Positions 10,781 through 52,576 of a stretch of DNA of 64,000 bases are shown one piece after another. The stretch comes from Bacteroidales bacterium (GTDB lineage: Bacteria > Bacteroidota > Bacteroidia > Bacteroidales > WCHB1-69): the NCBI GenBank assembly GCA_045534635.1, contig JAZSKB010000051.1, positions 4,663-68,662 of the forward strand. The letters run 5' to 3'. The stretch's first letter is position 1. Each line of letters begins with the position of its first letter. A program made the translations under genes and the position numbers. Below the pieces are notes generated by a model. It was not told where the DNA came from, searched no databases, and worked only from the letters and a program-made list of their open reading frames with translations.

Positions 10781-10795
10781 TGGCACAAAAATTGC
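10781..10795 (+). promoter_or_regulatory. Sigma-54 (RpoN) -24/-12 promoter motif TGGCAC-N5-TTGC
   Basis: TGGCACAAAAATTGC with canonical GG-N10-GC spacing, 19 nt upstream of the ATG at 10814. Confidence 0.5.
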
Positions 10796-10813: not shown

Positions 10814-11236
10814 ATGAAAATAATGACACAGGATATAAAATTTAAAGTAAGAAAATTGCTCTGTTTATTAATAGGAAGTGTTTTTTTAATACTTACTACG
10901 AGCATGAACGAAGATACAGTATCAAGTATAAATAAATGTATTTCCGAAGCCGATGCCCAATGTTTGTCTTCGTTTTTAAATACAACCATTGAAATGAATG
11001 TATTGGGTAATAATGGATATTATGGGAAATCGCAGGCAGAAACAATCTTAATTTCTTTTTTTAAAGAAAATCCTCCTCGTGATTTTAGCGTTAAACAAGG
11101 AGGTTCAACATCGGCAAATACTAAATTTTCTATAGGAACATACAATACTTCAAAAGAATCTTTTAGAATATATTATGTTCTTAAAAAAGAAGGAAATATC
11201 GAAAAAATCACTAAATTAACAATAGAAAAACGATAA
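10814..11236 (+). CDS. DUF4783-like small secreted protein
   Basis: 140 aa with an N-terminal hydrophobic segment. The family is recalled as commonly adjacent to nadC in Bacteroidota. Confidence 0.5.
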   Translation: MKIMTQDIKFKVRKLLCLLIGSVFLILTTSMNEDTVSSINKCISEADAQCLSSFLNTTIEMNVLGNNGYYGKSQAETILISFFKENPPRDFSVKQGGSTSANTKFSIGTYNTSKESFRIYYVLKKEGNIEKITKLTIEKR

Positions 11237-11248
11237 TTTTAATAGAAT

Positions 11249-12085
11249 ATGCAAATAGAAGAGTTTATTACTTTAGCAATAAAAGAAGATATTGGCAATG
11301 GAGACCATTCCTCCCTTTTGTCAATACCCCAAGAAGCACAAGGTCAAGCATATCTTTTAGTAAAAGAAAATGGAGTACTTGCTGGTGTTGATATTGCCAA
11401 AAAAGTATTTAATCTCATTGATGAAAATTTAAATCTTAATATCTTAATTCCAGACGGAGCCAAAATCACAAAAGAAGATATCGTTTTTGAAGTATCTGGC
11501 AATAAACGTTCGATTCTTATGGCAGAACGTTTAGTGCTAAATATTATGCAAAGAATGAGTGGAATTGCTACAAAAACAGCATATTATTGTTCATTAATAG
11601 AAGGGACCTCTGCTAAATTGTTGGATACACGAAAAACAACCCCCAATATGCGTATGTTGGAAAAAATGGCAGTTAAAATAGGTGGAGGATATAATCATCG
11701 TTTTGGGTTATACGACATGATTATGTTGAAAGACAATCATATAGATTTTGCAGGAGGAATAGCAAATGCTATTGGTAAAGTTCATCAATATTTAAAGGAA
11801 AATCATTTAAATATAAAAGTAGAAATAGAAACACGTTCTTTAGCCGATGTCAAAGAGGTAATCAAACTCGGTGGAATAGATAGAATAATGTTTGATAATT
11901 TTTCACCAGAAGAAGTACGTCAAGCGGTAGTATTGGTAAATGGTAATTTTGAAACAGAAGCCTCTGGAAATATAACAGAAACCACTATCCGCGATTATGC
12001 CCAAACCGGTGTAGATTATATTTCAGTGGGAGCTTTGACACATTCGGTAAAAAGTTTGGACTTAAGTTTAAAAGCAAAATTATAA
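11249..12085 (+). CDS. nadC: Nicotinate-nucleotide pyrophosphorylase (carboxylating)
   Basis: 278 aa. Contains LLDTRKTTPNMR, GGGYNHRFGLYD, MLKDNH and MFDNF blocks typical of NadC. Confidence 0.93.
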   Translation: MQIEEFITLAIKEDIGNGDHSSLLSIPQEAQGQAYLLVKENGVLAGVDIAKKVFNLIDENLNLNILIPDGAKITKEDIVFEVSGNKRSILMAERLVLNIMQRMSGIATKTAYYCSLIEGTSAKLLDTRKTTPNMRMLEKMAVKIGGGYNHRFGLYDMIMLKDNHIDFAGGIANAIGKVHQYLKENHLNIKVEIETRSLADVKEVIKLGGIDRIMFDNFSPEEVRQAVVLVNGNFETEASGNITETTIRDYAQTGVDYISVGALTHSVKSLDLSLKAKL

Positions 12086-13077
12086 TGAACAATTCAATAA
12101 AAACAATAGGAATACTAACTTCAGGAGGCGATGCCCCCGGAATGAATGCCGCTATTAGAGCCGCTACTCGTGCTGCTATTAATAATAATATAAATGTAAT
12201 AGGAATTCGTCGAGGATATCAAGGATTGATAGATAATGATACAATTCCTTTAGATTCTTATAGTGTACGAGGAATCATTCAACGCGGAGGAACAATGCTT
12301 TTGTCTGCCCGTTGTCCTGAATTCAAAACTACAGAAGGATTAGACAAAGCTATGCAAAATTTAAAAGCAAATAACATTGATGCTTTAATAGTTATAGGAG
12401 GAGATGGTACTTTTAGAGGTGCTAACGATTTGATAAATCGTTTCAATTTCCCTATTGTCGGTATTCCTGGAACAATAGACAATGATATTTATGGTACAGA
12501 ATATACTATAGGCTACGATACTTGTTTGAATACTGTTGTAGATGCAGTGGATAAACTTCGAGATACTGGTAGTTCTCACAATACTATATTTTTTGTAGAA
12601 GTTATGGGCAACGAATCGGGATTTGTTGCTATGAATAGCGGTTTAGCATGTGGAGCAGAAATAATTATGGTACCAGAACAACAAAATCAAATGAAAAAAG
12701 TTCGTGATTTTTTGAAAGAACGAGCAAGACGAAATAAGTCAAGTCTTATAATGGTTGCAGAAGGAGTAGAAGGAGGAGCCATGTCCATTGCAAAATTGTT
12801 AGAAAAAGAATTTCCTCAATTTAGTATAAGAGTATCTGTTTTAGGTCATATTCAACGAGGAGGAAGCCCCAGTTCAAAAGATAGAATTTCCGCAAGTGAA
12901 TTAGGAGTAGCCGCCGTTCAAGCCTTACTTGCAGGTCAAACAGCAGTAATGGTAGGATATGAACACAATAAAATTCATTTAGAATTGCTTAGTAAAGCAG
13001 TAAAAATGCACAAACGTATTAATTCTAATTTAATAAGTGTTGCAGAAAGTATTGGAACATTTACCCCAATAGATTAA
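12085..13077 (+). CDS. pfkA: ATP-dependent 6-phosphofructokinase
   Basis: 330 aa. Contains GILTSGGDAPGMNAAIR, IGGDGTFRGA, GIPGTIDNDI and LGHIQRGGSP motifs. TAATG overlap with nadC. Confidence 0.95.
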   Translation: MNNSIKTIGILTSGGDAPGMNAAIRAATRAAINNNINVIGIRRGYQGLIDNDTIPLDSYSVRGIIQRGGTMLLSARCPEFKTTEGLDKAMQNLKANNIDALIVIGGDGTFRGANDLINRFNFPIVGIPGTIDNDIYGTEYTIGYDTCLNTVVDAVDKLRDTGSSHNTIFFVEVMGNESGFVAMNSGLACGAEIIMVPEQQNQMKKVRDFLKERARRNKSSLIMVAEGVEGGAMSIAKLLEKEFPQFSIRVSVLGHIQRGGSPSSKDRISASELGVAAVQALLAGQTAVMVGYEHNKIHLELLSKAVKMHKRINSNLISVAESIGTFTPID

Positions 13078-50044: not shown

Positions 50045-50135
50045 AAAATATTTTTGATTTAAACTTGCTGTTTATCAGCAATTTATCGTTGATAAATAAA
50101 ATAAAATTTGCAAAAATAGTACTTTTTTGCTCTTT

Positions 50136-50150
50136 TGGCACGCTTTTTGC
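50136..50150 (+). promoter_or_regulatory. Sigma-54 -24/-12 promoter (TGGCACGCTTTTTGC) for paralog 1
   Basis: Canonical GG-N10-GC spacing, 40 nt upstream of the ATG at 50190. Confidence 0.6.
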
Positions 50151-50189
50151 TATCATTTTTAGTGAAGATAATTTTAAATAAATAATGTT

Positions 50190-50930
50190 ATGAAAAAAAT
50201 TGTATTTTTCTTGTCAATGATATTTGCATTATCGACTTTATTTTCTTCGTGTACAGTGTATCATCCTCAATCCGTTGATATTCCTCTTATTCGACACCAA
50301 AATGATTTACAAGTAGAAGGGGCTATTTCTATTTCTCCTTATCCTTATTCATCACCTACATTAAACGCTACTGCAACTTATAGTTTTAATAAATGGGGAG
50401 CAGTTCAAGCACATATAAATACTGATGGTTATACAGAACTTTATTTACAAACGGCTTTTGGTAGTTATCTCCCTATAAAACAACATTACGTAATAGAAGG
50501 TTATGCAGGTTATGGATTATGGGGTAGTAGAAAATCTGAAGCTTATGAATTATGGGATAGTAATGAACCTGAACCTTCTGGAATATATCATTGTCCTTTT
50601 TTACAATTTAACACTGGCTGGGTTGGACTTGCAAAAGAACATATTGATGTTGGTTTTGGGTTAAAAACAGGTTGTTTGATTAGCAAATATAGAGAAATAT
50701 CATCTAGTAGCTATACTTTAGAAGGAAATATTTATCAATCCATAGAGTTTAATGATTTTATAAATTATGCTCCATTGATAGAACCACAAGTTTTTATTCG
50801 ATTTGGAGGAAAAAAATTAAAAGGTTCATTACGAGTTAGTTATTGTACATTTTTGGGCATGGAGAATTTTGTTTATTTTCCTGCAAATATTAGCATAGGA
50901 ATTTCCTACAAATTTGAATTTAAAAGATAA
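50190..50930 (+). CDS. Lipoprotein paralog 1 (predicted beta-rich outer-membrane protein)
   Basis: 246 aa. Lipobox LFSSC. It shares framework blocks with the two downstream paralogs. Confidence 0.65.
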   Translation: MKKIVFFLSMIFALSTLFSSCTVYHPQSVDIPLIRHQNDLQVEGAISISPYPYSSPTLNATATYSFNKWGAVQAHINTDGYTELYLQTAFGSYLPIKQHYVIEGYAGYGLWGSRKSEAYELWDSNEPEPSGIYHCPFLQFNTGWVGLAKEHIDVGFGLKTGCLISKYREISSSSYTLEGNIYQSIEFNDFINYAPLIEPQVFIRFGGKKLKGSLRVSYCTFLGMENFVYFPANISIGISYKFEFKR

Positions 50931-50952
50931 TTTTTTTCATTAAAAGTACTTT

Positions 50953-50967
50953 TGGCACGCTTTTTGC
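50953..50967 (+). promoter_or_regulatory. Sigma-54 -24/-12 promoter (TGGCACGCTTTTTGC) for paralog 2
   Basis: Identical motif, 40 nt upstream of the ATG at 51007. Confidence 0.6.
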
Positions 50968-51006
50968 TATCATTTTTAGTGAAGATAATTTTAAATAAAT
51001 AATGTT

Positions 51007-51702
51007 ATGAAAAAGATTGTATTTTTTTTGTCAATGCTATTTGCATTATCGGCTTTATTTTCTTCGTGTACAGTGTATCACTCACAAGCCGTAGATATTC
51101 CACTTATTCGACATCAAAATGATTTACAAATAGAAGGAGCGATTTCTTCTACTTATATAGGAGCTCCAGCAATAAATACTACTGCAACTTATAGTTTTAA
51201 TAAATGGGGAGCAGTTCAAGGACATATCAATTGGAATGGTTACATGGATTTTTATTTACAAACAGCGTTTGGTAGTTATCTCCCGATAAAACAACATTAC
51301 GTAATAGAAGGATATGTAGGGTATGGATTATGGATAAGTCCAGAAGAATATGGAATATATCATAATCCTTTCTTACAATTTAATACTGGTTGGGTTGGTC
51401 TTGCAAAAGAACATATTGATGTTGGATTTGGATTAAAAACTAGTTGTTTGATTAACTTTTTTTCCACAACTACTAACAATATATTTTTTAAAGACCCCAC
51501 TTCACCGTTTGAAATACAAACTACTTTTAGAGAATTTTCACCATTGATAGAACCACAAGTTTTTATTCGTATTGGTAATAAAAAATTAAAAGGCTCATTA
51601 CGAATAGGTTGCTGTGCAGTTTTATTAGGGACAGCAGCAATTGATTATGTTCCTGTAAACGTTAGTATCGGTATTTCTTACAAATTTGAATTTAAAAGAT
51701 AA
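51007..51702 (+). CDS. Lipoprotein paralog 2
   Basis: 231 aa with the same signal peptide/lipobox and framework. Confidence 0.65.
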   Translation: MKKIVFFLSMLFALSALFSSCTVYHSQAVDIPLIRHQNDLQIEGAISSTYIGAPAINTTATYSFNKWGAVQGHINWNGYMDFYLQTAFGSYLPIKQHYVIEGYVGYGLWISPEEYGIYHNPFLQFNTGWVGLAKEHIDVGFGLKTSCLINFFSTTTNNIFFKDPTSPFEIQTTFREFSPLIEPQVFIRIGNKKLKGSLRIGCCAVLLGTAAIDYVPVNVSIGISYKFEFKR

Positions 51703-51724
51703 TTTTTTTTATTAAAAGTACTTT

Positions 51725-51740
51725 TAGCACGCTTTTTTGC
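51725..51740 (+). promoter_or_regulatory. Degenerate sigma-54-like motif (TAGCACGCTTTTTTGC) before paralog 3
   Basis: GG is changed to AG, and one extra T makes the spacing N11 instead of N10. Confidence 0.35.
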
Positions 51741-51779
51741 TATTATTTTTAGTGAAGATAATTTTAAATAAATAATGTC

Positions 51780-52499
51780 ATGAAAAAGATTGTATTTTTT
51801 TTGTCAATGGTATTTACATTATCGGCGTTATTTTCTTCGTGTGTAATGTATCATCCTCAATCTGTTGATATTCCTCTTATTCGACACCAAAATGATTTAC
51901 AAGTAGAAGGGGCTATTTCTTCTACTTTGTTCGGGTCTCCTGCAATAAATGCTACTGCGACATATAGTTTCAATAAATGGGGAGCAGTTCAAGCACATAT
52001 AAATACTGATGGTTATACAGAATTTTATTTACAAACGGCTTTTGGTAGTTATCTCCCTATAAAACAGCATTATGTAATAGAAGGATATACTGGTTATGGA
52101 TTTGGATTTAGTAAGACTACTACTTCTCTTTTTGGTAAAGATATAACTATATCTGGAATATATCATTGCCCTTTTTTACAATTTAACACTGGTTGGGTTG
52201 GTCTTGCAAAAGAACATATTGATGTTGGTTTTGGACTAAAAACTGGTTGTTTTATTACCAGCTTTTCAAAAATTCAAACTAATATCAAAGGTAATGAAAC
52301 ATCTCCTGAAACACAAGTTAGTACTTTTAAAGAAATTGTTCCATTGATAGAACCACAGATTTTTATTCGATTTGGAGGAAAAAAATTAAAAGGTTCGTTA
52401 CGAGTTGGTTATTGTACATTTTTTAATATGGGAAATTTTGATTATTCCCCTATAAATGTAAGTTTAGGAATGACCTACAAATTTGAATTTAAAAGATAA
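51780..52499 (+). CDS. Lipoprotein paralog 3
   Basis: 239 aa with the same signal peptide/lipobox and framework. Confidence 0.65.
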   Translation: MKKIVFFLSMVFTLSALFSSCVMYHPQSVDIPLIRHQNDLQVEGAISSTLFGSPAINATATYSFNKWGAVQAHINTDGYTEFYLQTAFGSYLPIKQHYVIEGYTGYGFGFSKTTTSLFGKDITISGIYHCPFLQFNTGWVGLAKEHIDVGFGLKTGCFITSFSKIQTNIKGNETSPETQVSTFKEIVPLIEPQIFIRFGGKKLKGSLRVGYCTFFNMGNFDYSPINVSLGMTYKFEFKR

Positions 52500-52568: not shown

Positions 52569-52576
52569 TACCTTTG
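52569..52576 (+). promoter_or_regulatory. -7 box (TACCTTTG) for the HlyD/ABC operon
   Basis: Exact TAnnTTTG match 20 nt upstream of the ATG at 52596. Confidence 0.5.

Follow-up and report, generated by a model that had tools for sequence, protein, structure and literature searches.

A strain-variable tandem array of predicted lipid-anchored outer-membrane barrels with sigma-54-type promoters in Bacteroidales

The Opa proteins of Neisseria are small outer-membrane barrels encoded by multiple paralogous genes, wherein the framework is conserved, variation is limited to the surface loops, and recombination between paralogues or alleles generates new variants. Here we examine an array of three consecutive lipoprotein genes in a 64,000-nucleotide stretch of DNA from a Bacteroidales bacterium (contig JAZSKB010000051.1, positions 4,663 to 68,662; this whole stretch is hereafter called the window), for which Opa is the closest functional analogue. 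OpcA and NspA, two small-barrel relatives of Opa, are among the Foldseek neighbors listed for the product of the first gene. However, no sequence relationship to Opa was detected, and the array proteins are predicted to carry an N-terminal lipid anchor and to form barrels of 10 strands rather than 8. In addition, the array genes lie in tandem (opa genes are dispersed) and lack a coding-repeat phase switch, and their control is apparently exerted by sigma-54, judging from the upstream sequences.

Two other groups of barrels bear comparison. The omptins OmpT and Pla, together with OpcA, likewise have 10 strands, including long strands that protrude past the membrane, and they give the best query TM-scores (~0.50). 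However, an identity of 7-9% and a TM-score of only ~0.5 correspond to a generic fold, and the omptins and OpcA are single-copy proteins that lack a lipid anchor. The second group comprises the OMP_b-brl family (PF13505) and the transmembrane domain of OmpA, to which the family of the array proteins is connected by a weak profile link of some members, described below, and by the top Foldseek E-value. In this instance the distinctions are the number of strands (10 compared to 8) and an invariant N-terminal motif that follows the lipidated Cys in the array family.

Sigma-54 acts on a number of genes for the cell exterior, including pilin and flagellar genes, and the RpoN-RpoS pathway of Borrelia controls surface lipoproteins. 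A more general thesis holds that sigma-54 governs envelope and surface components (PMC3162934). The array shares the canonical -24/-12 promoter architecture of such genes, but appears to differ from the known examples in that the putative promoter is repeated before each member of a tandem barrel array, and in that the array occurs in Bacteroidales.

An earlier note on this DNA, made from its letters alone, stated that a sigma-54-controlled, diversifying family of surface proteins could not be assigned to a described system. This was overstated, because recombining variable-loop barrel families and sigma-54 control of exterior genes are both known kinds. With moderate confidence, we favor the interpretation that the locus is a strain-variable tandem array of lipid-anchored, 10-strand barrels whose loops are reshuffled by recombination, and that each unit is equipped with a sigma-54-type promoter.

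The array proteins and their predicted fold

The three open reading frames (ORFs) of the array encode proteins of 246, 231, and 239 amino acids with pairwise identities of 70-71%. As described in the earlier note, a signal peptide (MKKIVFFLSM.F.LS.LFSSC) and long framework blocks are common to all three copies, and the differences and indels are found in discrete patches. The genes, and the predicted outward connections of copy 1, are located as follows (HMM, hidden Markov model):

50190-50930, + strand: copy 1, 246 amino acids, loop set A; ORF, family HMM match of 3e-79
50190-50252, + strand: copy 1 signal peptide and lipobox, with Cys21 at 50250-50252
50334-50357, + strand: copy 1 predicted loop L1, variable patch 1; residues 49-56, between strands 39-48 and 57-65; 2-residue indel
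50424-50435, + strand: copy 1 predicted loop L2, short and semi-variable; residues 79-82, between strands 70-78 and 83-96; TDGY or WNGY
50529-50579, + strand: copy 1 predicted loop L3, variable patch 2; residues 114-130, between strands 100-113 and 131-146; local confidence (pLDDT) 65-73
50679-50771, + strand: copy 1 predicted tip of the protruding hairpin of strands 7 and 8 (S7-S8), variable patch 3; residues ~164-194, between strands 152-177 and 180-206; nearly all columns vary
50844-50882, + strand: copy 1 predicted loop L5, variable patch 4; residues 219-231, between strands 210-218 and 232-243
51007-51702, + strand: copy 2, 231 amino acids, loop set B; ORF, alignment, and family HMM
51780-52499, + strand: copy 3, 239 amino acids, loop set C; ORF, alignment, and family HMM

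The N-termini have the charged n-region, the hydrophobic h-region, and the lipobox ending in SS-C that are characteristic of lipoprotein signals, and Cys21 is invariant among 94 family members. Copy 2 is the same as an NCBI-derived protein (P0005) except for the called start. In public gene calls for several family members (P0002-P0005, and the called genes of the related locus L001), the internal Met10 is taken as the start. This choice cuts off the charged n-region and thereby hides the lipoprotein nature of the proteins in those records.

Surface-exposed lipoproteins of Bacteroidota are marked by an acidic signal located just after the Cys. The array proteins instead carry TVYH or VMYH at positions +2 to +5, and no Asp or Glu occurs before +10. 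Because this export signal is missing, the anchor is predicted to reside in the inner leaflet, with the N-terminus in the periplasm. Specifically, once signal peptidase II had processed the protein and Cys21 had been lipidated, the N-terminus would be anchored at the inner leaflet of the outer membrane.

An AlphaFold2 model of copy 1, computed with the family alignment as input, has a mean predicted local distance difference test score (pLDDT) of 91.2 and a predicted template-modeling score (pTM) of 0.83. It contains ten strands (residues 39-48, 57-65, 70-78, 83-96, 100-113, 131-146, 152-177, 180-206, 210-218, and 232-243), some of which are joined by short turns of 3-5 residues (66-69, 97-99, 147-151, and 207-209). 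The 50 Protein Data Bank (PDB) matches listed by Foldseek are outer-membrane barrels, including the OmpA transmembrane domain, Pla/OmpT, OpcA, NspA, and KdgM, with TM-scores up to ~0.5 and identities of 7-12%; the OmpA domain ranks first by E-value. A sequence-profile search of the PDB yielded only chance matches, none of which fell under E = 0.05. Several charged residues located inside strands (E103, K159, E198, and R204) are conserved, and they recall the internal salt-bridge network of OmpA. The copies are thus predicted to be lipid-anchored, 10-stranded outer-membrane beta-barrels.

With the N-terminus in the periplasm, the four short conserved turns most likely face the periplasm as well, whereas the connections after strands 1, 3, 5, 7, and 9 would face outward. 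The inserted barrel would thus display five loops on the outer face, one of which is the long protruding S7-S8 hairpin. The membrane boundary of this hairpin was set by counting ~12 residues from the periplasmic turns.

Loop variation and recombination among strains

The differences among the three window copies map to the predicted outer face of the barrel. Variable columns make up 67 of the 75 outward-loop positions (89%) compared to 31 of the 153 membrane or periplasmic positions (20%; Fisher p = 2e-24). The patches delineated in the earlier note coincide exactly with the predicted outward connections, and its expectation that they would be exposed loops is therefore borne out by the model. 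Loop L3 differs in length by up to 13 residues among the window copies. The third loop of copy 1 also carries a 33-nucleotide (nt) tandem duplication (50510-50577, 2.1 copies, 80% match) that encodes YGLWGSRKSEA / YELWDSNEPEP, and thus internal duplication is one source of the differences in loop length.

Ratios of nonsynonymous to synonymous divergence (dN/dS), estimated by the Nei-Gojobori method, are 0.17-0.30 across the framework compared to 0.7-1.5 across the loops, with none of the loop values significantly above 1. The barrel framework is under purifying selection. The loops are either unconstrained or under diversifying selection, and the dN/dS values fit either case. Positive selection on the loops, which the term diversifying in the earlier note implies, is thus one possibility beside relaxed constraint, given a loop ratio of ~1 (compared to ~0.2 for the framework). 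Synonymous divergence (dS) is also higher in the loops than in the framework.

Signs of exchange between copies are present within the window. For the framework, dS is 0.24 between copies 1 and 3, but 0.44 and 0.55 for the other two pairs. The earlier observation of substitutions common to copies 1 and 3 but not copy 2 is therefore correct for most of the framework, whereas the signal-peptide region groups copies 2 and 3. A runs test on the site patterns of the window copies indicates clustering along the gene (p = 0.009), as expected from the mosaic structure that had been proposed. However, recombination is much clearer from a comparison of strains than it is within the window.

The close relatives available for this comparison are metagenome contigs of ~30% GC that are syntenic with the window. 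The shared gene order is Steroid_dh, Oxidored_FMN, DUF3127, the array, HlyD-like, ABC ATPase, and Pribosyltran. These syntenic metagenome loci carry the following numbers of array genes:

L001: two copies
L003: two copies
L057: at least two copies
L058: at least two copies
L004: one copy

One to three units are seen among related contigs, and the window has three. When the copies were typed by their four main loops, five parental types (AAAA, BBBB, CCCC, DDDD, and EEEE) and two recombinant types (ACEC and AACC) were distinguished; the E-type unit is represented by copy 2 of L003 and by the single copy of L004. In their DNA, the recombinants are pieced together from blocks that match different parents at 100% identity, with breakpoints that fall within the framework. 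For example, L001 copy 2 is composed of C(1-90), A(91-300), C(316-450), E(451-630), and C(631-end), and the last copy of L058 is A-type to ~450 and C-type thereafter. Similarly, L001 copy 1 joins a C-type signal-peptide region to an A-type body. The reading frame is intact in 11 of the 11 copies seen.

Because these recombinants consist of identical blocks from different parents, the sequence comparison shows that copy number has changed and that loops have been reassorted via homologous recombination between copies or alleles. It likewise shows that the gene has been amplified in this low-GC lineage and that its outward loops have diverged into five or more loop sets (A-E). Homologous recombination through the conserved framework, by either gene conversion or unequal crossing-over, reassorts loop sets and alters copy number between strains. 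The loops most likely vary under pressure from surface-recognizing agents, for example phages, host factors, or competitors. Slipped-strand phase variation, either at a T8 tract in the signal-peptide codons or at the promoter T-run, was also considered. It was rejected because no frameshifted or length-variable copies were seen; furthermore, no short-unit repeat was found in the array.

It is unlikely, although it deserves serious consideration, that the locus is an ordinary tandem duplication whose loops drift without constraint, and that the variation and the recombination have no adaptive value. Loop dN/dS values of ~1 are what such drift would produce, the loops of outer-membrane barrels are generally their least constrained parts, and a change in copy number is expected of any tandem repeat. 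However, all copies retain intact frames, and framework dN/dS is only ~0.2. Moreover, five or more distinct loop sets have persisted among just a few samples, along with recombinants that reassort whole loops, and the amplification is confined to this lineage. The excess of loop dS over framework dS also speaks against simple drift, and suggests that old loop alleles have been maintained on a homogenized framework.

Promoters of the array

Sequences upstream of the three genes carry the following elements, the first two of which are perfect matches to the sigma-54 motif TGGCAC-N5-TTGC:

50136-50150, + strand: sigma-54-type -24/-12 promoter of copy 1, TGGCACGCTTTTTGC, perfect match; inferred transcription start near 50161-50163
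50953-50967, + strand: sigma-54-type promoter of copy 2, TGGCACGCTTTTTGC, perfect match
51725-51740, + strand: decayed promoter of copy 3, TAGCACGCTTTTTTGC, with GG changed to AG at -24 and one T added to the spacer

An extended form, TTGGCACGCTTTTTGCT, is present at 50135-50151 and 50952-50968, wherein the GG and GC doublets are exactly 10 nt apart. The sigma-54 consensus (TGGCACG and TTGCW) is matched at all 12 of its strongly conserved positions. The elements are intergenic and lie on the strand of the gene, and the gap between the last base of the motif and the ATG is 39 nt in every unit (window, L001, L003, L004, and L057). Three perfect matches to TGGCAC-N5-TTGC occur in the window, compared to 0.06 expected from shuffled sequences. 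The two matches in the array are counted as one independent event because both sit in one duplicated unit.

The comparison of strains is informative about the element itself. The same core occurs in L001, L003, L004, and L057. When the E-type unit (L003 copy 2 and L004) is compared with the remaining units, a 29-nt core, CTTTTGGCACGCTTTTTGCTATCATTTTT, has 0 substitutions, whereas the bases just upstream differ (ACAC compared to GCTC), as do ~8 of 27 downstream bases, and the proportion of synonymous differences (pS) in the framework is 0.34-0.44. An invariant core between diverged flanks argues for constraint on the element, although this is a single diverged comparison. From these sequence features, the array is probably driven by sigma-54. 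Each unit would then bring its own -24/-12 promoter, and expression would be off by default and turned on via an enhancer-binding ATPase after a signal.

Copy 3 is a special case. Both alterations that had been described for its element, the loss of the GG doublet and the 1-nt insertion in the spacer, are present, and it thus departs from sigma-54 promoters in sequence as well as in spacing. The same decayed element precedes the last copy of L058, and so the lesion (a T5-to-T6 spacer) has been stably inherited; the copy-3-type allele in L057 has an intact motif. Read-through from copy 2 is possible because no terminator-like site was found between the copies. Having lost its element, copy 3 may be expressed by read-through only, if at all.

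Another sigma-54-type site in the window is independent of the array:

10781-10795, + strand: second sigma-54-type site, a perfect TGGCAC-N5-TTGC in front of the genes DUF4783, nadC, and pfkA (10814-13077), 18 nt from the first of them

Orthologous DUF4783-nadC-pfkA loci from other species (L059-L062; GC 35-38%, 52-56% protein identity) carry TTTGGCATAAATTTTGT upstream, which corresponds to TGGCAT-N5-TTGT, at varying distances from the ATG and between unrelated flanks. Retention of the site despite diverged flanks suggests a conserved sigma-54-type promoter for this operon. Because the site is not part of the array duplication, it provides independent support for the use of sigma-54 in this lineage.

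Several points weigh against the interpretation that we favor. The two window promoters that precede family genes are copies of one duplicated unit. No rpoN (searched for by its RpoN-box) and no gene for an enhancer-binding protein could be detected across the 64-kb window and the 850 kb of fetched loci, and the GAFTGA and Walker-A signatures of sigma-54 activators are likewise missing from the window. The sigma-54 motif is absent from homologues at 45% identity or less, some of which have ordinary TAnnTTTG promoters, and therefore sigma-54 control would be a lineage-specific acquisition that accompanied the amplification. With regard to the protein, the membrane orientation and the hairpin-loop boundaries are deduced from secondary structure rather than from coordinates or experiment, loop dN/dS values of ~1 are no proof of positive selection, and loop alignments are unreliable at such divergence. 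Finally, an exact -7 box for sigma-A, TACTTTTG (50946-50953, at -60), overlaps the 5′ edge of the -24 element of window copy 2, and the corresponding spacer of L001 copy 2 has a -7 box, TATTTTTG, in the same overlapping position.

The overlapping box of window copy 2 was overlooked when the sigma-54 promoters were first proposed, and it qualifies a reading that otherwise stands on a perfect match and an invariant core. From the sequence, a sigma-A promoter or a dual promoter is possible before window copy 2 and L001 copy 2. A broader claim would be that the ordinary Bacteroidetes sigma-A holoenzyme transcribes the array, and that the sigma-54 match is fortuitous or a vestige within the duplicated unit. 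We regard this as rather doubtful. It draws on the two boxes noted above and on the fact that the same type of box serves other genes of the window: among 29 genes with upstream gaps, 13 have an exact TAnnTTTG box (mostly TAYCTTTG) within 110 nt upstream, and the HlyD-like gene that follows the array has one at -27 (52569-52576, before 52596). This use of normal Bacteroidetes promoters also agrees with a Bacteroidota origin of the window. In addition, the distant homologues in L002, L008, L010, L034, and L040 show TAnnTTTG at positions -34 to -41 and lack the sigma-54 motif. However, the box is missing before copy 1 (CTCTTTTG), where none occurs within 110 nt of the ATG and the nearest lies at -141, and also before the E-type unit of L003 and L004 (CACTTTTG), yet the sigma-54 core is intact in both. 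A fortuitous or vestigial match would also have to account for agreement at 12 of 12 core consensus positions, for a core that is unsubstituted where its flanks diverge, and for the second, independent site conserved elsewhere in the lineage.

A more elaborate scheme can be imagined in which surface variation is programmed. A sigma-54 activator would sense a host or phage-related cue and gate the barrel genes, and the promoter-dead copy 3 would be a silent donor whose loops pass into the expressed copies through gene conversion. Such a locus would be the Bacteroidales equivalent of pilE/pilS or msp2-type systems, with a lipidated barrel family as its basis. This proposal is speculative, and we consider it improbable.

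The literature offers a prior in favor of the sigma-54 reading. The rpoN gene is nearly universal among diderm bacteria with lipopolysaccharide (PMC3162934), and sigma-54 regulons have been predicted in Bacteroidia (PMC12316311).

The region that precedes the copy 1 promoter has an additional feature:

50065-50095, + strand: overlapping inverted repeats (I1, I3, and I4) upstream of copy 1; the hairpin at 50065-50081 is terminator-like

The repeats are partly conserved in L004 (~50-80), a diverged locus with a single copy, which retains the element TGTTTAT-N2-GCAATT-N-AT-N2-TTGA-N-AA. The repeats could be the terminator of the DUF3127 gene or a candidate site for a sigma-54 activator. A regulatory RNA in the leader was considered and rejected, since an Rfam scan of the window gave one tRNA as its sole match. 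As a separate observation, a rumen Bacteroidales metagenome-assembled genome (MAG) has a perfect TTGGCACACAATTTGCT (L047, ~5956, + strand) that precedes the gene for a CobW-like GTPase by 35 nt, and this is a possible sigma-54 promoter in a distant relative.

The wider protein family and its significance

The three window copies have no significant match in Pfam or NCBIfam. Matches to DUF4131, DUF5530, and LA_3334 were discarded because they fall far under the thresholds of these databases. With no Pfam, NCBIfam, or PDB family claiming the window copies, the earlier supposition that they do not belong to a well-characterized outer-membrane protein family is upheld. A word-indexed search of 5.8 billion proteins returned nine clusters only, whereas an exhaustive profile search recovered 1,299 clusters (50% identity) at E <= 0.001 and 110 at E <= 1e-30. 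Family members are named just "hypothetical protein" in the source databases, and their lengths are 220-250 amino acids in nearly all clusters. The features conserved in the family are the lipobox Cys, a motif (Y-x-P-Q-x-V-D-I-P-L-I) just after this Cys, and, in most members, an aromatic C-terminus. The C-terminus of most relatives reads ...NYRF, ...F, or ...L, and that of the window copies reads YKFEFKR, which is the aromatic pattern followed by two basic residues.

The PF13505 profile weakly matches 8 of the 94 aligned members (E <= 0.01; best E = 3e-07), and no other Pfam family matches any of them; its gathering threshold is not reached by any of the three window copies. We conclude that this is an undescribed, Bacteroidales-wide protein family within the general superfamily of outer-membrane barrels. 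That the protein is instead a soluble periplasmic or surface lipoprotein, whose patches are not the loops of a membrane protein, is very improbable, because the lipoprotein signal peptide, the YKFEFKR ending in place of a terminal aromatic residue, and the lack of a Pfam outer-membrane match for the window copies, which are the points in its favor, are countered by the confident 10-strand model, by listed structural neighbors that are outer-membrane barrels, by relatives that end in ...NYRF or ...F or match PF13505, and by the missing acidic export signal.

A scan of GTDB representatives, which do not include the species of the window, identified 42 family loci, all in Bacteroidales MAGs and mostly from rumen, with GC contents of 35-63% and at most 40% identity to the window proteins. 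The family gene is single-copy in 42 of the 42 genome loci. Its neighborhood in these genomes is unrelated to that of the window, and includes a giant GH94 protein, an alpha/beta hydrolase, peptidase U32, and RadA. Specifically, in loci of rumen Bacteroidales (L007-L047; for example, L028 2350-14272), the gene for a GH94 protein of ~2,560 amino acids (cyclic beta-1,2-glucan synthase-like) recurrently adjoins the single-copy family gene, and this pair is followed by the alpha/beta hydrolase, peptidase U32, and radA genes. The idea of a conserved operon partner downstream in distant homologues was dropped because these neighbors are housekeeping-like and are absent from the window locus.

Additional searches for relatives were less productive. 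A scan of JGI metagenomes with poorly chosen patterns (MKKIVFF and YH[PS]Q[SA]VDI) returned distant rumen relatives only and no close alleles, and an exact look-up of P0004 gave no matching contig. Beyond the window end, the last gene could be traced only to short contigs that encode an OmpA-domain protein and a TPR protein.

The literature searched does not document a lipidated barrel combined with per-copy sigma-54 promoters and a cassette-like reassortment of loops in Bacteroidales. Each ingredient of this combination is already familiar, and current understanding is not overturned. The analysis nevertheless defines a sizeable family of Bacteroidales outer-membrane proteins (~1,300 clusters) that has a confident fold, a lipid anchor, an invariant N-terminal motif, and no database name. 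Its low-GC lineage shows a route to a variable surface family, which proceeds by amplification, by diversification of loops (in part through internal duplication), and by cassette-like reassortment. If the sigma-54 promoters are functional, then the array genes would join the few concrete targets of sigma-54 that have been proposed in Bacteroidales, and they would tie sigma-54 to the cell surface in this order, as has been argued for other phyla.

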